In this document: positions 3,328 to 14,405 of the stretch, one piece after another
How positions within the stretch are numbered: position 1 is the stretch's first letter
Layout of the letters: every line of letters starts with the position of its first letter
NCBI RefSeq assembly: GCF_056746865.1
Contig: NZ_CM163382.1
Length of the DNA: 64,000 nt
Direction: 5' to 3' (one strand)
Program-made: the position numbers and the translations under genes
The notes under the pieces: model-generated
Database searches by the model: none
What the model was told of the DNA's origin: nothing
The model's input: only the letters and a program-made list of their open reading frames with translations

Positions 3328-3933
3328 TCAACTCCGGCTACAGCCAAAATTGCGCTCACCGGTGCAGTGAGCTTTGGTATGTTCCTTCGCCAGATAGTCA
3401 GCACGTTCCAGCACCTGCTGAAAGCCAGTGTCATCATCGCGTTCCAGCCACACCGCCGGCCAGGCCGGGAAATGCACCAGCGTGGCATGGCACCCGACAT
3501 CCACTCCCAGGGCACTGCACCACGCCTGTTTAATCATCCCGGCCAGTGATCCCGGAGCACGGTAATCACCGGCACGACACCAGGTATCCCGGTTAACCAG
3601 CAGCATCAGGTGATAGTGTTTTTTACCTTTGCACTCCCCAAACTCCCGGGCCCAGACGTAATGCAGGGTTGTGGGATGCACGCGTTTACCTTCCCGATGC
3701 TTACGTTTCTGGTAAGCGTCGATTCGGGCTTTCAGGGCATTGATGAAGCGGGATATCACAGCTGCGTCCGTTGCTGCCGGTACATCCGGGAAACGCAGGT
3801 CAACCCGCAATGCCGTCAGGCGGGGATGAACATTCAGTGCGTGCCGCACCGTCTCACGAATACGTTGCTGCCAGAAGGGGTTGTATTTGTAGGTCATGGT
3901 TAAATCTCCGTATGGTTCATACGGAATAGCCAC
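3328..3933 (-). CDS. YagK/YfjJ-family protein (inovirus Gp2-like, typical of CP4-6/CP4-57-type islands)
   Basis: 201-aa ORF; recalled family resemblance (KYNPFWQQRIRETV..., HYHLMLLVNRD). Start may be the internal Met at 3897. Confidence 0.55.
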   Translation of the reverse strand: MAIPYEPYGDLTMTYKYNPFWQQRIRETVRHALNVHPRLTALRVDLRFPDVPAATDAAVISRFINALKARIDAYQKRKHREGKRVHPTTLHYVWAREFGECKGKKHYHLMLLVNRDTWCRAGDYRAPGSLAGMIKQAWCSALGVDVGCHATLVHFPAWPAVWLERDDDTGFQQVLERADYLAKEHTKAHCTGERNFGCSRS

Positions 3934-4093
3934 GTCGTAAAAAATGCGCAGAGTCCCTGAAGTGACCTCCGGCAGGACACTGTCTCAGGCACTCTGTGAT
4001 AACCCGAACGGTCGTCTCCGGACTGACGGTTGAATTTTCAGCGTTGTTTTTTTAATGTAAAAAACCGGTTACGGGTAAGGCTGTGAGGAGGGA

Positions 4094-4297
4094 GTGATGG
4101 TGATACGCAAAAAGAAGTGCAGGGACTGTGGAAACGCGATTACTCATAATACAGTGTGTTGCCCGTATTGTGGTTCTGTCGACCCCTTCGGCTATTACCG
4201 GAATACAGACCGTATCGTTACCATACTGCTGGCACTGATTATTGTGGTCCTGCTGACTACTGTCAGCGTCAGTGTGTATATACTGTGTAGCTGGTGA
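4094..4297 (+). CDS. small zinc-ribbon membrane protein (CxxC-x-CCPYCGS followed by one transmembrane helix)
   Basis: 67-aa ORF with strong GAGGAGGGAG ribosome-binding site directly upstream; C-terminal hydrophobic stretch IVTILLALIIVVLLTTVSVSVYIL. Confidence 0.45.
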   Translation: MMVIRKKKCRDCGNAITHNTVCCPYCGSVDPFGYYRNTDRIVTILLALIIVVLLTTVSVSVYILCSW

Positions 4298-5248
4298 GAT
4301 AACGGTTCATGTATCCCCTGAGCTGACAGTGTACCGGGTATATTAAGCGTAACCGACAGGTTCTCCTTCATACCATATTAAATTTTTCCAGGTATTGCCG
4401 CTGCCTTATTTCGTCCCATACAGGAAAACTCGTCTGGGTTTCTGACAAATACGCGAAACTCACAGCCCCTCAATATCAACCACACGCTGTAAGCCGGTAA
4501 TACCTGAAAATCAGCCTATTACCGCCCGCGCCTCCGTTACCGAACGCTCAGGTGACCAGACTGAAGCCCAGCACGCACTCGTAAAATTTGCGGTCAGTTC
4601 CGTCAGTCAGTGGGCAACCGCAGAGTTACGGGCTTCCAGGTCCACAGGAGTGAGTCTATAACGCGTGTGGGAAATCATTTTTTCTGGCGTTGACAGAACG
4701 CCTTACGGGCTGCTACTTACCCGGTGTCCCGCAATACAGCCTTAGTGTTCCGTTATCGGGGATCCGGACGCACCGCAACAACCGGGGAAGTATTTCTGGT
4801 TAGAGCTGTGTCAAGAGGGATTTCTCAGCCCCTCACTCACCGGCTCAGTCTCAGGGCAGAAGCATTAATACACTCAGTTCATGTCTTATACAGGAATGGG
4901 CATAGGGGGAGCTGGCGTGTCACTGCTGATTTTACGCATCAGCGTTCATGTATCTGCACTCTGATACAGAATGCTTCACAGCGCTCTGTTACCGGAGAGA
5001 TTTACTCTCTTAGGTTATTCTGGCAAATCCTTTACGTTACTCTCTGATGACTTCTTATATTTATAATACCAATCAGACAACCTTATCCCATCGGTGATAT
5101 CAGTCTCCTGCTCGCCAGGAACGGGCTGACTCACTGTAACCACCTCCGAAAACAACTCTGCAATTATCAGAACGCCTGCTTCTCTCCCTGTCCTCACGAA
5201 AACTATCCCCTCTTTATCGCGCGTGCGTGCGGAAGCATCTTTTCGCAA

Positions 5249-5259
5249 CCCCCCCCCCC
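5249..5259. repeat. homopolymeric C tract (11 C)
   Basis: Run of 11 C at 5249-5259, about 165 bp upstream of the alpA-like start. Confidence 0.9.
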
Positions 5260-5423
5260 GGGATTCCGCTACGGCTCTGCCATCGCAATCCCCCCGTTTA
5301 TCTCCGGACAGCCACATTCCCGATTATTTTTTACGTTTCTCCCCGGTTGTTATGCCGGTGAAGGTGGCGCGCTGTTTTCATGACCACACCGGCTGGTTTA
5401 ACAACATCCGGAGGAACATTCTC

Positions 5424-5630
5424 ATGGCTACCCCAGTTTCGCTGATGGATGACCAGATGGTCGACATGGCGTTTATCACTCAACTGACCGGCCTTACCGA
5501 TAAGTGGTTTGACAAACTCATCAAAGATGGGGGCTTTCCTGCGCCCATCAAAATGGGGCGCAGCTCCCGCTGGCTGAAAAGTGAAGTGGAAGCCTGGCTG
5601 CAGGCGCGTATTGCACAGTCCCGTCTGTAA
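5424..5630 (+). CDS. alpA: AlpA-family phage/island transcriptional regulator (excisionase-like)
   Basis: MATPVSLMDDQMVDMAFITQLTGLTDKWFDKLIKDGGFPAPIKMGRSSRWLKSEVEAWL matches the AlpA/MerR-like HTH family. ATG at 5424 preceded by GGAGGAA. Confidence 0.7.
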   Translation: MATPVSLMDDQMVDMAFITQLTGLTDKWFDKLIKDGGFPAPIKMGRSSRWLKSEVEAWLQARIAQSRL

Positions 5631-5717
5631 TTTTTAACCACTAACCCTTCGCCCACAGCAGACGCAATCTCCGGCCTGCCGGCGGCGCTCTGCTGCCTGT
5701 TATCCCCCGTGAGGAAT

Positions 5718-6326
5718 ATGAAAATGAAACAACAGTATCAGACCCGTTACGAGCTGCTCCATGAAAACTACCAGAAATGGCTGACCGGCTTCACCCGGCA
5801 CGCCGTATCATGGGGCGTGTGTCATCCGAATATCTACTATTTCCATAATCTGACGCCCGGGTGGGTGTCATTCAATGGCGAAAAACCGGAGATTGCCATC
5901 GTTCCCCAGAGTCTGCACCGGCTGATTTATGGTCCGGACAAACGGAGCTCCCCGTCCCTGGATGATGATCTGGTGGTGAATTTATGCACCAGCGAACACC
6001 TGCTGGTTCATCATCCGATGCTGGAAGGGATCCTGCTGTCTGAATGTGAGCGCCTGAAGCAACATTCTCTGGCAAACAAACTGATCAGCCTCTTCCGTCA
6101 GTTTGGCGGCACGGAGTTACGTCTCAAACTGGTCTGGCTCTGCTGGCTTGACTTAATGACCGGAAACAGCCTTGACGACTGGACGAAAAACCTGAAACAC
6201 AAATCAGAAAAAGATCTGGAGCAATGGATCATTGCACGTCAGGGTCAGAGTGAACCACTGACAAATCTGATGGATCAGTACGTGCTTATGGCATACCGTA
6301 CATCGGTTGATGCCGCTCACAGTTGA
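5718..6326 (+). CDS. hypothetical protein
   Basis: ORF 5709..6326; ATG at 5718 with GAGGA upstream; followed by a perfect 12-bp stem hairpin. Confidence 0.4.
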   Translation: MKMKQQYQTRYELLHENYQKWLTGFTRHAVSWGVCHPNIYYFHNLTPGWVSFNGEKPEIAIVPQSLHRLIYGPDKRSSPSLDDDLVVNLCTSEHLLVHHPMLEGILLSECERLKQHSLANKLISLFRQFGGTELRLKLVWLCWLDLMTGNSLDDWTKNLKHKSEKDLEQWIIARQGQSEPLTNLMDQYVLMAYRTSVDAAHS

Positions 6327-6336
6327 TGTCTGAGAA

Positions 6337-6370
6337 CCACAGGGCTGGCAGCAGAAAACCAGCCCTGTGG
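6337..6370 (+). terminator. stem-loop (ccacagggctgg / ccagccctgtgg) downstream of the 5718..6326 ORF
   Basis: Perfect 12-bp inverted repeat with 10-nt loop; weak U tract, so intrinsic-terminator function is uncertain. Confidence 0.4.
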
Positions 6371-7149
6371 TAAAATACAGTAATAGCGGCGTACATCAGG
6401 CACGCCGCTCACTCGTCCACAGATCATATACGTCATTATACTGCGCGATAACGGAGGGCTTCAGCACCCGGTCATTTCTGAGCGGGTATGAATACCATTG
6501 ATGATGCGAAGCAGCCACGGGCAGAAACGTTCTTCACAACCAGGTGCCTCCATCTTCACTGCAGTCTGAATGTGCCGGCTTGTTATCCACCAGAAATGGT
6601 ATGCTCCGGTACATGCATACCCCGGAGACTATAAACGCACTGAATCATAGCCTCCCACCTCAGCAGGAGGCAGTCAGCTTTCAGGCGGAAAAACGTTGCA
6701 GTTAAAGATCGTGAGAATCGCTGTTTCGTTGCATAGCAACCCGAACAGTTGTAGTGAAACATTTTACCTGCATCAGCACATGGTCAGGCGCCGTCTGTAT
6801 GGCGTGGAATACTGATGTTTCGGCTGATGGCAAGCCTCATTCTCTGTGGAAACAGGGGCGCGCATTAGCTTCTCAACCAAGAGAGTGTCACAAAGACAAA
6901 TATTGCTGAAAATCGCATTCATCGTTCAGGCGTGAATGCCCGGAGACAAAAGCCGCTGTCCACACAGTCCCCCTCTGACCTGAACAAAAAGCATACACAC
7001 AACAGGCTCACCTGACCCCGAAAAACCATAACTTCAGCAATACCAGTGACACCAGCACGTTACCTCAGTGCCACATCTTCAGACCGCGATCAATCTGAAA
7101 TGTGACTATCGGGGCAATATCCCTGCTTTGTGGTACACGATAACCAGAA

Positions 7150-7244
7150 AACATCCCCTGAACCGCCAGCCAGAAAGACTGGCCACAAAAGGGGTAAGCT
7201 GAAATCGTTTATGGATTACATCGACATATGCCTGGCAGAGAATG
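7150..7244 (+). pseudogene. IS21 istA remnant, 5' piece (split by the IS66 insertion)
   Basis: Translates PEPPARKTGHKRGKLKSFMDYIDICLAEN, matching the IS21 IstA N-terminal region; continues in frame at 9683 once the IS66 element is removed. Confidence 0.55.
7237..7244. repeat. 8-bp target-site duplication AGAGAATG (left copy) of IS66-family element
   Basis: Identical 8-mer immediately flanks both GTAAGCG termini (7237-7244 and 9683-9690). Confidence 0.8.
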
Positions 7245-7285
7245 GTAAGCGTGCAGTGAGAACCGTATTGACGAAGTGAAGCTGG

Positions 7286-8822
7286 TCAGGCGGGCAGAGT
7301 AACCCGCCACGGGAGCAGAGCACCCACCCGGTTCACAGGCCAGTCGGCGATGACATCAAGTACATGATGCAGATAGCGTTCCGGATCCACGCCGTTTAAT
7401 TTGCACGTCCCGATAAGACTGTACAGTGACGCACCGCGCTCACCACCATGATCCGAGCCGAAGAACAGCCAGTTTTTTCTCCCCAGACTGACCAGTCGTA
7501 GGGCGTTTTCGGCAATGTTATTATCCACCTCCACCCAGCCATCTTCTGCATAGCGGGTCAGCGCCGGCCACTGGTTCAGCGCATACCCGAACGCCTTCGC
7601 CAGTTCTGAGTGCCTTGAGAGGGTTTTCTGTTTCTCCCGCAGCCACCCCTCCAGTGACGCCAGCAGCGGCAGCACTTTTTGGTGCCGGACTGCCTGCCGT
7701 TCCTCTGCTCTTTTACCTCTGAGCTCCGACTCGATGGCATACAGCTCGCCGATCCGTTTCAGCGCCTCCTCCGTCAGGGCTGACGGGGTACGGACGTGAA
7801 CATCGTGGATTTTTCGGCGGGCATGGGCCCAGCACGCGGCTTCCTTTATATGGCCGTCGCGGTAGAGCTCGTTGAACCCGGCGTAGGCATCAGCCTGCAG
7901 TACGCCACTGAAGCCTGCAAGATGGGTCTGAGGGTGGATACCTTTTCTGTCCGGGCTGTAAGCGAACCACACTGCGGGGGCCAGCGCTGATCCGGCGTTG
8001 CGGTCGTCTCGAACGTACGTCCATAAGCGCCCGGTCTTCGTCTTCTTATTGCCCGGCAACAGCACCGGGACAGGCATATCGTCAGCATGGAGTTTGCCGT
8101 CGGTCAGGACATAGTGCTGAAGGGCTTCATCCAGCGGTGCCAGCAGACGACAACACGCATCCACCCAGCCCGACAGTACAGAACGACTCAACACTACACC
8201 CTGGCGGGCATAGATCTCCGACTGGCGATACAGCGGTATGTGCTCTGCATACTTTGAGGTCAGCACTCGGGCCAGCAGCCCCGGTCCGGCGATCCCCCGT
8301 TCGATGGGGCGCGAAGGAGCCGGGGCCTGAACGATGCGATCGCACCGACGGCAGGCATGCTTTTCACGGACTGTCCGGATAACCCGGAAGGCGCTGCGCA
8401 TCAGCTCCAGCTGTTCGGCGGCATCCTCACCCAGGTAACTCAGCGAACCACCGCACTCCGGGCAACACGGCTCAGTCGGCAGCAGCCGCTTCTCATCCCG
8501 TGGGAGTGACTCAGGGAACGGTTTGCGGGTGCGGGTCTGACGCAGCGGGCGCTGCACTGCCGGGTCATCCACCCGGCCGGTCAGCGTATCGCTTTCCTGC
8601 TGCAGCAGGTTCAGGTCAGCTTCCATTTGCGCGATACGGCGGGATACCTTTTCGGAACGACTGCCGAAGTTCATCCGGCGCAGCTTATCCAGTTGCGCCT
8701 GCAGATGGTCTATTTCGCGTTCCCGGTTGCTCAGCTTTTCCTGCAGGGCGTGGATCAACGCTTCCTGGTTCGGCCAGGCGCTGTTTCAGCAGAAGGATGT
8801 CGTCAGAAGAGGTGTCGTTCAT
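7286..8822 (-). pseudogene. tnpC: IS66 transposase TnpC with a frameshift about 17 codons from the start
   Basis: ORF 7286..8758 is the IS66 TnpC body. The N-terminus MNDTSSDDILLLKQRLAE is encoded from 8822 in another frame, with one extra C near 8770 (gaaccaggaagcg). Confidence 0.65.
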
Positions 8823-8871
8823 AAGCCTGTATTTTACCAGGCTTATTCTGCGACAACCAGGATAAAGAGCG

Positions 8872-9219
8872 CTACAACATGGTCAGGGATGTCAGTAACC
8901 GCTTTGGCTGTCGCCAGTCGATACCTTCCATCAGCATCGCCAGTTGCGCCGGCGTCAGGAACACTTTGCCATCGCGGGCTGAGGGCCAGGCGAAGCGACC
9001 ACGTTCTAGTCGCTTTGTCAGCAGGCACAGACCATCGCCGGTGGACCAGAGCAGTTTTACCTGACTGCCGCTGCGTCCCCGGAAGATGAAGACGTGGCCG
9101 GACATCGGGTCATCTTTCAGCGCGGTCTGCACCTTTGCGGCGAGGCCATTGAAGCCGTTGCGCATATCGGTGATACCGGCAACCAGCCAGATTTTTGTGC
9201 CTGCGGGAAGATTTATCAT
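8872..9219 (-). CDS. tnpB: IS66 family accessory protein TnpB
   Basis: 115-aa ORF MINLPAGTKIWLVAGITDMRNGFNGLAAKVQ..., typical IS66 Orf2. Confidence 0.85.
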   Translation of the reverse strand: MINLPAGTKIWLVAGITDMRNGFNGLAAKVQTALKDDPMSGHVFIFRGRSGSQVKLLWSTGDGLCLLTKRLERGRFAWPSARDGKVFLTPAQLAMLMEGIDWRQPKRLLTSLTML

Positions 9220-9599
9220 ACAGGCCCCCGCATCAGTTCGCGCAGGACAGTGCTCATGAGTTCAGCAGAGGGATGAGTCAGTGTTATTTCTCCTCCCCGA
9301 CATTTTATGTGGCAGGTAGCGGGAGGAGAGCAGGATGGTAGTTCGAAGGTTGGGAGAGAAGAGCCCGCCTGAAGCTGCACGGGTATCAGGGCAGGAAGCG
9401 ACGATGAGTTTTTTCGGGGCCGACAGACCCGCCCTTCACGCTGCCAGAGCCTTATCCATTTAAAGAGCAGGTTATCATTGACGTCATGTTTCCGGGCCAG
9501 TGCGGCAATACTGCCTTCTTCTTCAAGAGCCAGCCTGACCAGTTCCATTTTGAATTCAGGGGAATAGTGTTTCCGGGGAAGTCTTTCTTTAGCGCGCAT
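9216..9599 (-). CDS. tnpA: IS66 family accessory protein TnpA
   Basis: 127-aa ORF with HTH-like N-terminus, overlapping the tnpB start by 4 nt. Confidence 0.75.
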   Translation of the reverse strand: MRAKERLPRKHYSPEFKMELVRLALEEEGSIAALARKHDVNDNLLFKWIRLWQREGRVCRPRKNSSSLPALIPVQLQAGSSLPTFELPSCSPPATCHIKCRGGEITLTHPSAELMSTVLRELMRGPV

Positions 9600-9682
9600 G
9601 AGGTGTCCACCTGCAAAATAAGTGGGTGCTTAAGTTACAGGATCCTGGATTCGGGACCAGACGGTACTCAGACGACGCTTAC

Positions 9683-9690
9683 AGAGAATG
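9683..9690. repeat. 8-bp target-site duplication AGAGAATG (right copy) of IS66-family element
   Basis: See left copy at 7237-7244. Confidence 0.8.
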
Positions 9691-9960
9691 TCCGGAATGA
9701 CGAGGTTATCTTTGCGGAGATTAAGGCAATGGTATACGGGCCGACGTTCCATGCCGCGTTACTACATTCAGCCCGGACGTAAAATGCGCCCGTCAAAAAG
9801 AACGGTTCGCTTCGAAACTCAGCCAGGATACCACCTCTCCGCCACACCCGGGAAGAAGTTGATATGGTGGTTGCCGGACAACAGCGCTCCTGGATTGACT
9901 GCTGCATCACTCAACCACGCTGAATATCAAAGGAGAGCGTTACCGGTTAAAAGAGAAACG
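9683..9960 (+). pseudogene. IS21 istA remnant, 3' piece (frameshifted, truncated)
   Basis: Encodes NVRNDEVIFAEIKAM and, in a second frame, RYYIQPGRKMRPSKRTVRFETQPGY, matching IS21 IstA residues ~85-150. No intact ORF. Confidence 0.6.
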
Positions 9961-11466
9961 TAAAGCTGTGGTGATGACCCAAAACGCAACGCCTGTCAGT
10001 GAGGATGAAATGGTGAAAAGCGGACAGCATCAGTAACGGAAGTATCTTAGCGGGTACGAAAATGGCAGGATCGTGACATTGACAGAATATCTCCTGATCA
10101 TCCTGAATGACTGCAGTTGCTGTAGAAAAGTAAGCTGTCTCCACCCACGGCACCACTTAACAGGCATTCCGTAACTTCCCCCAGACTTACTATGACGCAT
10201 TATCGGTGCACTGAAAACGGGAGAGTGCGCTTAAAACCGCAGACCGCATGCGGGTGTTACTGCATGACAGTCTGGCCGTATTGTGAGATGTCGGCAGGAA
10301 CCGATGTCCGCGCAGGGGGGAACTTCCTGCAGTACCTGACGCTTCAAATGGTATTAACCGTAGGGTGTTGTTGGTTCCGGATCGCGGAAATGGGAGCACA
10401 GGTCTGCTACGGGGTGTACCTCTGACAGTATATCCGGCTCGCTCATCTGACAGCCTCTCTCCCGGAAAAGACCAAAAATGAGATCGTCTCCTCAACAGCA
10501 GAGAAGAGGTCTTGACAGACAGGCTATATTGCATACGATTTATGAAGAAAAAGACAGCAAATATGGAGGTTATAGCGGAGAATACCCTACGAAATTCCTA
10601 TGAAAAACGATTGAAAAAAATATCAAATTCGATTCGTTTTTATATGCTTTTTGGGAGCGTGGCGATGACGAACTGTTGCATGTGCAGAGGAGAATGCACC
10701 CGGAAGCACCAGAATCATCCAGAAAGGCAGAACGATTACGCATCAAACCAGGAGACAGCAATATCAAGGTAATATACTGATTTAAAATGAATTTACAGCA
10801 ATACGTGAAAACATTTTTTACTTAAAGGAGACAGATGCGCTGAAGAGAGTGCAAGTATTTTTATATAAAAATGAGAAGTTTACGGGATGTATATCCGGCA
10901 CACTATGACCGGAGAATATCAGTCAAGCTTAAAAAGACAATAAATACAGTGAGTTAAATACACAGAGAAAACGTAGTATCAGAGGGTACATCTTACAACA
11001 GAGACTGAATTTCCGGTTTTTCATAACCGGCGCATTCCGGAAAGTGCAGGCGGCCCGGAGGTTTTCTGACGCCACTACCTGGTAGATTGTTCTGTACATC
11101 ATGTACGGAGGTTTTTGTTTGCTTTTTTAAAATCTGCAAATGTGAGAAAAGCAGGTGAGGTGTATTGTGGGAAAGGAACTGGATGATATCTGCACCAGCT
11201 GTCCGTATATCGATGCTGTAAAACGGCACAAACAACAGCTCGGTGCCATAGAGGAATATACACAGTGGTTAAAAAAAGAACCACGGGCATCTTATTTTTT
11301 TCTGTTCCAGCTGTATACCCGCATTCACAATACATTTTTCTCCCAAAAGCAACAACTCCCGTTCACTCCCGGTGGCACTCACTGCCCGGAACCTGATGTC
11401 ACCCTTCGGGACTTAACGCTTTCCCCTGGCTACCACAGTGATTATGCCCCTCAACCCATTCCGGAG

Positions 11467-12318
11467 ATGGACAGTTCTGCTGTTGTTCCCCCAACTAATG
11501 AAAACACCTCGCCTCCGGAAGATACTCCCGACAACACTCCGGCCGGAGGCAATACCGGACAAGCGGAAAAGACCAGAAACGCAGGACTCACACCCATTCC
11601 TGAAAAACGTTCAGGAATGCCCCCGGAACATCTGCGGTTTGCCACGGGGTTTCCATCGCAACCGAAGATTGCCGGTCCCAGAGAAAAGCCGATGCGCACC
11701 GTGCATCCGGATAAAATCTACCGTGAAATTATATGGTTCTGCTCCAGTTACCTGCTGAAATCCGGACCAGAGGCTACGAGGACGATTATCAACTCAGTAT
11801 TCTCTGAATGGGCCAGCATAAACAATGATTACCCCTCCCCCTTTTCGTGGGTGGACAGCAGGGACAGTGAACAGTGTGACTGGTTATGGAACGCCATGCA
11901 GGTCCGGTGTGTGGGAACCCCGCTGAATCCCCTTACCCCGGAGCAGAAATACTGGTTTGCCTGCGCCACGTTTGATAACTGGGAGGGCTGGAATGAGCAA
12001 CAGGTACAGTTTTTACTGGAAAGTAATCCCAGACGGAACAGAGCGAAGTTTACGCAGGTCTCCTTCCAGGCCCCCAGGATTCAGCATAAAGCGATTCTTC
12101 TTGATGAGCTGAAAAGTGCCCGGGAGCAACAAAAAAGGCGTGATGAACGTGCTGATGGTTCCGTCCCTCTGAAACTGTCCGGAAAAATCCACAAACAGCT
12201 TGAAAGTATTGCCCGAAGTCGTGGTGTCCTCCCAAAAAAACTGCTGAATGAAATGATTGAGCAGGCGTACCATGATTTGGTGGCAACCAGGCAGAACAGC
12301 CAAATCGATTCCAGATAA
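11467..12318 (+). CDS. hypothetical protein (Pro/Thr-rich N-terminal region; C-terminal region with ribbon-helix-helix-like segment)
   Basis: ORF 11155..12318 with no ATG before 11467. GGAG precedes ATG 11467. No family recognised. Confidence 0.3.
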   Translation: MDSSAVVPPTNENTSPPEDTPDNTPAGGNTGQAEKTRNAGLTPIPEKRSGMPPEHLRFATGFPSQPKIAGPREKPMRTVHPDKIYREIIWFCSSYLLKSGPEATRTIINSVFSEWASINNDYPSPFSWVDSRDSEQCDWLWNAMQVRCVGTPLNPLTPEQKYWFACATFDNWEGWNEQQVQFLLESNPRRNRAKFTQVSFQAPRIQHKAILLDELKSAREQQKRRDERADGSVPLKLSGKIHKQLESIARSRGVLPKKLLNEMIEQAYHDLVATRQNSQIDSR

Positions 12319-12401
12319 TTTCAGACAGATATTATTTCCGTGAATCCCCCGCCACCTTTCCGGTGCGCGGGGTTTTGTCTTTTTTCACCGGGAATACATG
12401 T

Positions 12402-12637
12402 ATGAATCCGTCTGATGCCATTGAGGCAATTGAAAAACCGCTCTCCTCCCTGCCTTACTCACTTTCCCGTCACATCCTGGAACATCTGCGCAAACTCACC
12501 AGTCACGAACCCGTGCCTGGCATTATGGGTAAAAGCGGGGCCGGTAAATCCTCACTCTGTAATGCGCTGTTTCAGGGGGAGGTCACCCCGGTCAGTGATG
12601 TTCACGCCGGCCCCCGGGAAGTGCAGCGCTTCCGTCT
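12402..12637 (+). pseudogene. YeeP/YfjP-like small GTPase gene, N-terminal part (interrupted by IS21-family element)
   Basis: P-loop GKSGAGKSS, then ...REVQRFRL at the insertion junction. Confidence 0.7.
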
Positions 12638-12839
12638 TGCAAAATGGCATCTGAATCGATCGCAGTTTGGCATTCGAATCGATCATGATTTGGCATCCAT
12701 CTCCGATCACAGTTTGGCATCACAATCGATCACGATTTGGCATGCTTCCGATCATTGATTGGCATCCTGCCAGTCACTCCGGGAATTAACTCTTTTCACC
12801 ACAGTCTCCATTGCCGTGTTTAAACCAGTGGAGACGTCA

Positions 12840-14405
12840 ATGTCCAGAAAGAGAAAATCCAGGAGCACTATGGAAACCTGTTTTAAGATTCTTCAGCTCA
12901 AGTTCGACAAGAAGCTGACTAACCGTTGTATCGGACTGACGTTACACATCAGCGCCTCAACCGTTTTTGAGGTTCTTGCCCGCTTCAAAGCCTCTTCTCT
13001 GTCATGGCCATTACCTGCTGATATATCCCATGACACGCTGGAGAAACTCATTTTTCCGCCCAAAGACACCTTTGCATCAGAGCTTGTAATGCCTGACATG
13101 TTGTACCTCGATACGGAAATGAGAAAACCAGGTGTGACGCGGCAACTGTTGTGGATGGAATACAAGGCACAGGCGGGTAACAAAGCGATGGGATACTCGC
13201 ACTTCTGCCGTTGCTACCGGGAGTGGAAAAAAACGCGACGTCTCTCCATGCGCCAGGAGCATCGTGCCGGCGAAAAGCTTTTTATCGACTTCTGTGGTCC
13301 TACGGTTCCTGTTATTAATCCGGACACCGGTGAGATACGCCGCGTGGCAATCTTCGTGGCCGTAATGGGGGCGTCCAACTATACCTACGTTGAAGCGTGC
13401 GAAGGTCAGGACATGATGTCATGGTTAAATGCCCACAGCCGTTGCCTGACCTTCCTGGGCGGCGTACCGAAGCTGCTCATCCCCGATAACCTCAGAAGCG
13501 CAGTGAAAAAGGCCGATCGATATGAGCCTGTCATCAACGACAGTTATCAGGCACTGGCTGAGCACTATGGCACGGTTATCATCCCGGCCCGACCACGCAA
13601 ACCTAAAGATAAACCAAAAGCAGAAAACGGCGTCCTCATCGTCGAACGATGGCTTCTTGCCCGCATCCGTAATGAAACCTTCCACACGCTCAGGGCGCTG
13701 AATGCGCGCCTTAGGGAGTTACTGACAGACATGAATAACCGGCCAATGAAGGGGTACGGCAATCAAACCCGTGCAGAACGCTTCCGCATACTGGATGCGC
13801 CAGCACTCTCTCCGCTGCCTCTGGCACCTTATGAATACACGGAATACAAAGCTGTGAAGGTTGGCCCTGACTACCACGTTGAATATGCCCGTCACTGGTA
13901 CTCCGTTCCACACGAACTGGTCGGTCAGCGTCTGTCACTGAAGGCGGGGCAGTCGGTGGTACAGCTCTGGCACAAGGGGCAGTGTGTGGCGCAACATCCG
14001 CGCAGCACACATGAATATAAACACACAACCAATCCGCTTCACATGCCAGAGCGCCACCGGCAGCACGGGACATGGACACCGGAACGCCTGATCGAGCAGG
14101 GAAAACGTACGGGCCCGTCCACAGGCCGGGTGGTTGAATCCATGCTGAAGGCAAAACCCCATCCGGAACTGGCTTATCGTGCAGTTCTGGGGCTGCTGGC
14201 ACTTCAGAAAAAATACGGCCCGGAACGGCTGGAAAAGGCCTGTTACGTTGCCCTGCACTATAACGCCCCTGACAGACGCTTTATCGACAATCTGCTGCGT
14301 CACCATCGGGAGAACCTGGAGCTTCCATTATCCCGCCAGGGCGAACAACATCCGGCATATGCTTCAGAGCATGAAAACCTGCGTGGTCCGGGCTACTACC
14401 ACTGA
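12840..14405 (+). CDS. istA: IS21-family transposase IstA
   Basis: Long ORF with GGAG ribosome-binding site before ATG 12840; lies between IS21-type ends, directly upstream of an IstB-like gene. Confidence 0.7.
   Translation: MSRKRKSRSTMETCFKILQLKFDKKLTNRCIGLTLHISASTVFEVLARFKASSLSWPLPADISHDTLEKLIFPPKDTFASELVMPDMLYLDTEMRKPGVTRQLLWMEYKAQAGNKAMGYSHFCRCYREWKKTRRLSMRQEHRAGEKLFIDFCGPTVPVINPDTGEIRRVAIFVAVMGASNYTYVEACEGQDMMSWLNAHSRCLTFLGGVPKLLIPDNLRSAVKKADRYEPVINDSYQALAEHYGTVIIPARPRKPKDKPKAENGVLIVERWLLARIRNETFHTLRALNARLRELLTDMNNRPMKGYGNQTRAERFRILDAPALSPLPLAPYEYTEYKAVKVGPDYHVEYARHWYSVPHELVGQRLSLKAGQSVVQLWHKGQCVAQHPRSTHEYKHTTNPLHMPERHRQHGTWTPERLIEQGKRTGPSTGRVVESMLKAKPHPELAYRAVLGLLALQKKYGPERLEKACYVALHYNAPDRRFIDNLLRHHRENLELPLSRQGEQHPAYASEHENLRGPGYYH

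Follow-up and report, generated by a model that had tools for sequence, protein, structure and literature searches.

What fills the roughly 0.8 kb of apparently empty DNA in a genomic island of Escherichia coli is the question raised by this locus. The analysed stretch of 64,000 nt (the window) is E. coli chromosome and carries dacD, hisG, hisD and gnd, and its first ~25 kb are a genomic island adjoining dacD-his-gnd, the site of CP4-44 on the K-12 map. The gene order annotated by RefSeq in near-identical genomes starts with an ISL3 transposase pseudogene, two zinc-ribbon genes and an inovirus-Gp2/YfjJ-like gene on the minus strand, continues with an AlpA-type HTH gene (5424–5630) and a 200-aa hypothetical gene, then shows no annotation until IS-related features, and ends with a 387-aa hypothetical gene (11155–12318), a GTPase-family gene and a dynamin-family gene. 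For the unannotated 6371–7149, a preliminary description had reported no credible ORF, suggested that degraded genes, small RNAs or att-site remnants could lie there, and expected the original left end of an IS21 element together with whatever it had interrupted.

The gap follows the 200-aa gene (5724–6326, plus strand; WP_000813432.1 in RefSeq genomes), which has the AlpA-type gene upstream. No Pfam or NCBIfam model matched the 200-aa protein. Its homologues, with 57–66% identity, are spread across Enterobacterales (Yersinia, Klebsiella, Salmonella, Enterobacter, Cronobacter, Serratia, Hafnia, Pantoea and Citrobacter), and in the loci whose surroundings were examined the gene stands directly 3′ of the AlpA gene, with one small gene between them in Yersinia. 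The island has its gene backbone (AlpA, YfjJ/Gp2-like, YeeP-like GTPase) in common with the CP4-44 / CP4-57-type cryptic-prophage-like islands and, like the intergenic and decayed DNA of those islands, bears many insertion-sequence scars, whereas the gap 6371–7152 matches no named element of them, e.g., a known island small RNA (Rfam scan negative).

Several related copies of the island were also recorded. In UTI89 (L003), ISEc20 (IS110 family) is inserted upstream of alpA at point 5253/5254, and a Hha/YmoA-family pseudogene that is missing from the window is present. The conjugative IncF plasmid pARG01 (L008, NZ_CP049937.1) carries a segment of the island with 99.7% identity, comprising Gp2, alpA, the 200-aa gene, an uninterrupted IS21 remnant and the 387-aa gene, with an IS100 copy just downstream, which suggests that chromosomal island DNA was captured via an IS. 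Another record, L010 (NZ_CP079635.1, a 1.04-Mb 'Klebsiella pneumoniae plasmid'), contains, at 99.9% identity, the E. coli island including the IS66-family insertion seen in the window, and has only 5 annotated features; this record looks mis-assigned or contaminated.

The coding potential of the gap was evaluated from its reading frames, and its right edge was set at 7152 because IS21 nucleotide homology begins at 7153. The longest ORF with a start codon encodes 59 aa (6583–6762, minus strand), and the longest stop-free runs span 66 codons (6505–6702 on the plus strand and 6586–6783 on the minus strand); thus the earlier statement that no frame stays open for 60 codons is slightly too strong. 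In shuffles of the gap bases the longest stop-free run was 95 ± 23 codons, and 6% of the shuffles were as short or shorter. As its stop-free runs are no longer than those in shuffles of the same composition, the gap looks non-coding. Consistently, a Shine-Dalgarno-like motif was found upstream of none of the 13 gap ORFs of 36–59 aa, as expected from the earlier remark that ribosome-binding-site-linked starts are lacking, and 7 of 12 comparable gap ORFs, including those of 59, 51, 49 and 48 aa, were interrupted in one or more copies of 97–99.9% identity, either by 1–2-nt indels or by stops.

Among 5,426 complete E. coli genomes, about 1,900 contain the gap with 97–100% identity, and PGAP annotates its copies with nothing or with small, inconsistent 'hypothetical proteins'. 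The copies of UTI89, 536 and Nissle 1917 show 98.9% identity. Two of these calls, a 71-aa 'hypothetical protein' (about 6799–7015) and a 50-aa protein on the minus strand, were rejected as genes, being frame-inconsistent between near-identical genomes and devoid of a ribosome-binding site. The window also carries one extra base within 6750–6925 in comparison with L006, L003 and L007, so that different small ORFs appear, including the 71-aa PGAP call.

Further, the gap was compared with protein and nucleotide collections. Pfam, queried with X-masked six-frame translations of both gene-free regions (this gap and a second one at 9961–11466), returned nothing. In an exhaustive HMMER search, 22 stop-free gap fragments (≥30 aa) were compared with 1.84 billion representative proteins; the 22 proteins found were all gene-caller ORFs of 30–107 aa. 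Most of these matches are 72–100% identical to the query and two about 50%; they lie on both strands in overlapping or incompatible frames, and several read into IS ends. They are gene-caller artefacts of the same DNA and constitute no protein family. A word-indexed protein search with the six-frame X-masked gap query yielded no matches, a weak negative since the exhaustive HMMER search later recovered the short ORF entries. By blastn, a distant search of the gap against phages gave no match, while that against plasmids gave 6 records, all island copies or a weak match to 6431–6633; a repeat search over 5600–11600 found only short matches, probably by chance. These results bear out the reported lack of a credible ORF in 6371–7149, with a maximum of 59 aa and no protein-family match in six frames.

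RNA features of the gap were then assayed. Two adjacent strong hairpins are located at 6336–6410, just 3′ of the stop codon of the 200-aa gene, one with a 13-bp stem (6336–6371) and the other with an 8–10-bp stem (6385–6410), and the latter falls within the gap. On the plus strand, neither is followed by a U-tract. The folding energies of the hairpin region are −41.4 kcal/mol (plus strand, z −6.8) and −49.8 kcal/mol (minus strand, z −7.3), and within 6300–7160 the only zone with windows of z < −3 is 6300–6460, which holds the two hairpins. In the variants L011 and L012 the hairpins are replaced by other sequence. Scanning 4000–13000 on either strand with Rfam 15 at E ≤ 1 gave no covariance-model match, so the Rfam check proposed earlier turned up no ncRNA family. 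RNAalifold, applied to the plus strand of 5 sequences in 2 divergence classes, gave a covariation term of +1.96 with many pairs broken; the term being positive, a conserved fold is not supported. No sigma-70-like promoter was found in 5600–7300, where 1.5 would be expected by chance, and ARAGORN detected no tRNA in the whole window. A degraded gene, small RNA or att-site remnant in 6371–7149 was thus demonstrable by none of Pfam, HMMER, Rfam, RNAalifold and ARAGORN.

Comparison with island variants divided the gap into two parts. The first, 6371–6633, is a weakly conserved, non-coding 3′ flank which accompanies the alpA/200-aa module. Its segment 6431–6633 is 70–73% identical to L011 and L012 with 9–15 gap positions, while in the same variants alpA is 91–97% and the 200-aa gene 90–91% identical; the indels in this segment between variants are of 1, 2, 3 and 8 nt and do not come as multiples of three. 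Homology to L011 ends at 6633. The second part, 6634–7152, is lineage-specific non-coding DNA and the landing site of several ISs in other strains; it is absent from L011 and is found only as patches (6743–6912 and 7095–7152) in L012, L015 and L016. As judged from the alignments, this divergence pattern appears to be one of weak or absent constraint, the available relatives being either >97% or, in aligned patches only, ≤ about 76% identical, a distribution with little power for a short constrained element. Against neutrality counts that 6431–6633 is still alignable across variants, which the neutral model attributes to recent common ancestry and does not predict.

The IS21 remnant to the right of the gap was mapped against the IS21 of an E. 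albertii plasmid (L009, 2129 bp), the ends of which are TGTCAGCGCC... and ...GGCGTTGACA. The left piece of the remnant (7153–7244, plus strand) corresponds to IS21 nt 217–308, i.e., istA codons about 39–70, with 90% nucleotide identity to L009; it is 5′-truncated, and the translated IstA match begins at residue 41. IstA-like coding is therefore recognisable from about 7150 as described, with nucleotide homology from 7153 at istA codon 39. The IS21 signal resumes only at 9691, because an IS66-family element interrupts the remnant. The right piece (9691–10084, plus strand; 86–89% by blastn, 76% for IstB by tblastn) contains istA up to IS21 nt 500, a deletion junction at about 9879–9882, and then IS21 from nt 1913, including the istB C-terminus (residues 212–265, with its stop codon at 10035) and, lastly, the right terminal repeat, which, aligned by eye to the L009 terminus GGCGTTGACA, ends TGACA at 10084.

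Overall, the remnant consists of IS21 nt 217–500 fused to nt 1913–2129. Its 86–90% nucleotide identity, the 76% amino-acid identity of the IstB C-terminus and the right terminus ...TGACA assign it to IS21, and it keeps the istA-then-istB order and the right terminal repeat. In contrast to IS21, it keeps only 500 of about 2129 nt and is without the left inverted repeat, istA codons 1–38, the catalytic part of istA and most of istB, and the gap 6371–7152 itself shares nothing with IS21. The missing nt 1–216, which comprise the left inverted repeat (TGTCAGCGCC...) and istA codons 1–38, where the HTH is encoded, had no blastn or tblastn match in 6371–7152. The expectation that the proper IS21 left end lies in the gap was thus refuted, homology beginning only at nt 217; and, the left end being missing from the gap and the remnant 5′-truncated, the interrupted target cannot be read here either. 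The variant L012 has the identical left truncation (IS21 nt 217) with a different internal deletion (258 to 1690), and the remnants of L015 and L016 start at IS21 nt 353 and nt 429, respectively. The diverged variants depict an old IS21 insertion that was eroded stepwise.

The element that splits the remnant is a complete IS66-family element of 2438 bp (7245–9682, minus strand) with inverted repeats and, by Pfam and NCBIfam, the genes for TnpA (tnpA, 9216–9599), TnpB (tnpB, 8872–9219) and TnpC (tnpC, 7286 to about 8821), all on the minus strand. Sequence read directly at its borders shows an 8-bp target-site duplication, AGAGAATG, with the left copy at 7237–7244 and the right copy at 9683–9690. 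Inverted repeats starting with GTAAGCG and 8-bp direct repeats are hallmarks of the IS66 family (PMC11946415). The inverted repeats of this element begin GTAAGCGT (GTAAGCG), and together with tnpA/tnpB/tnpC and the 8-bp target duplication they place it in that family, from which it differs in that tnpC has suffered a frameshift, owing to a single additional G near 8766 in comparison with an intact copy at the same site in L002. In 5426 complete E. coli genomes, the occupied junction, counted as full matches of a 140-nt probe across the site, was present in 273 and the reconstructed empty junction in 1086, with L006 as an example of the uninterrupted site. The element lies outside 6371–7149 and accounts for the interruption of the IS21 remnant, not for the gap.

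Insertions at this locus in other strains were collected from sampled rows of the match tables. In these sampled matches, IS150 was located at 6838–6843 in SMS-3-5, an IS3-family element at 7079 in strain N32, where everything to its left is deleted, ISEc22 at 7072–7080 in strain T2, and IS100 at 7185–7189 in 20Ec-P-124 and T2 and at about 9732 in UTI89. Including the IS66-family element at 7237–7244, at least six independent insertions were counted among the sampled matches in about 0.9 kb of uninterrupted sequence, a record that fits DNA tolerant of insertions. It is unlikely that these about 0.9 kb (6634–7152 plus the IS21 remnant) are a true insertion hot spot, an 'IS trap' for transposases of at least three IS families (IS3, IS21/IS100 and IS66), which could be drawn by the old IS21 ends or by local DNA structure; if true, insertions would be attracted here, beyond being merely tolerated.

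The preliminary description had also called a second region, 9961–11466, gene-free. This applies only to 10085–11154, since 9961–10035 is the in-frame C-terminal tail of istB, with the IS21 right terminus at 10084, and 11155–11466 is the start of the 387-aa ORF (11155–12318, plus strand), a RefSeq hypothetical protein in many genomes, for which PGAP uses an in-frame ATG lying about 12 nt further on and so arrives at about 383 aa. The stretch 10085–11154 is AT-rich (37–40% GC across 10500–11250) and probably constitutes the region upstream of the 387-aa gene. No annotated gene was found in it among the 45 listed of 2094 matching RefSeq records. A 114-aa minus-strand ORF lies in it within a stop-free run of 135 codons, and 87%-identical variants carry stops and frameshifts in this ORF; a plus-strand frame of 76–96 codons (10482–10772) was rejected as a gene, since a 2-nt insertion disrupts it in L016. 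Compared with L015 and L016, 10450–11050 has 90–100% identity per 50-nt window and 10000–10450 has 74–98% (median about 84%). A promoter-like TTGACA-16-TACGAT at 10512–10539 is found ahead of the 76–96-codon frame, and terminator-like hairpins are found at 10836–10853 and 11090–11110. The segment 10450–11050 could be a regulatory region or a small transcript upstream of the 387-aa gene, or it could mark a recombination-block boundary.

To place the gaps in the wider architecture, the island was set beside related islands. In Klebsiella, Yersinia and some E. coli (type A), the GTPase gene and a hypothetical gene of 292–368 aa are on one strand, and alpA, the 200-aa gene and the Gp2-like gene, in the E. 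coli example also a zinc-ribbon gene, are on the other; the intergenic gaps beside the alpA/200-aa pair are 0.2–0.5 kb, with about 1.3 kb upstream of alpA in Yersinia. The alpA/200-aa pair of the window is inverted relative to the type A order (3328–12318 compared with L017, L019 and L020). This inversion is common to the island here and every E. coli variant of ≥80% identity, and in the inverted type gaps of 1.2–1.9 kb flank the pair to the left and right. As a possible mediator of the inversion, another IS21 remnant in inverted orientation was sought at the 3898–5423 junction, and none was found. Two weak nucleotide matches (E 0.003–0.007) tie ancestral intergenic regions to the window. The long gaps are probably scars of the alpA/200-aa inversion and of later insertions.

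The anatomy described above, the missing signals of coding or RNA, the accelerated divergence and the separate insertion events are observations, from which we infer neutrality and an order of events; it is very probable that 6371–7152 is neutral, decaying intergenic island DNA with no or nearly no function beside nested IS relics. The gap would be made up of the first 40 nt with the second hairpin, ~220 nt of poorly conserved 3′ flank and ~520 nt of lineage-specific sequence. IS21 would once have inserted at its boundary, on the right of the gap, and afterwards have lost its left end (nt 1–216) and its middle (nt 501–1912); more recently, the IS66-family element would have split the IS21 remnant, giving rise to the 8-bp duplication. 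With no selection acting on it, the gap would drift, shrink by deletion and tolerate insertion sequences.

Other readings of the gap were weighed against this one. It is unlikely that the gap is an ancient pseudogene, left by one or several island genes now decayed beyond recognition, e.g., by a gene that ran towards the 200-aa gene and had its end near 6396. A minus-strand frame ...LRNDRVLKPSVIAQYNDVYDLWTSERRA does stop at 6396–6398 beside the hairpins, and the island gaps of 1.2–1.9 kb are unusually long for E. coli, compared with just 0.2–0.5 kb between these genes in the type A islands found in Klebsiella, Yersinia and other E. coli. However, none of the frames matched anything among the 1.84 billion representatives except short ORF calls on the same DNA, Pfam was empty, and the indels between variants follow no reading frame. 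A decayed type A island gene, Gp2-like or other, was also rejected directly, as tblastn with the type A Gp2-like, 175-aa, 342-aa, hyp292 and hyp304 genes found nothing in the gap.

Distinctly unlikely, too, is that part of the gap, most plausibly 6371–6633, acts as a small RNA, a 3′-UTR-derived RNA or a cis-regulatory element, with the hairpins terminating transcription in both directions at the alpA/200-aa module or insulating it. This part is kept 3′ of the 200-aa gene in all E. coli variants examined, the two hairpins are very stable, and on the minus strand the second of them is followed by a moderately U-rich tail as read from the sequence; yet its rate of divergence is about three times that of the genes beside it, its hairpins are replaced in L011 and L012, Rfam and the promoter search gave nothing, and the five plus-strand sequences show no net covariation and many broken predicted pairs. 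Highly improbable is that the gap holds the original IS21 left end with the disrupted target or an att site: although IS21 coding starts directly rightward at 7153, the truncation point is sharp, IS21 nt 1–216 and IstA residues 1–38 have no blastn or tblastn match in 6371–7152, the left-end sequence TGTCAGCGCC... is absent, and ARAGORN detected no tRNA across the window that could point to an att site.

Read as neutral, decaying DNA, the gap is ordinary, being unconstrained filler that was repeatedly struck by other ISs in other strains, and there is nothing new in kind at this locus. Its biological importance is small, and its value lies in annotation: no genes should be sought in the gap, the IS21 fragment is to be annotated as a 5′-truncated, internally deleted relic nested with a polymorphic IS66-family insertion, and the second gene-free stretch is shorter than had been reported. 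The strain-specific IS insertion points are possible lineage markers, and the locus offers a small natural example of unconstrained island DNA that accumulates and erodes insertion sequences.
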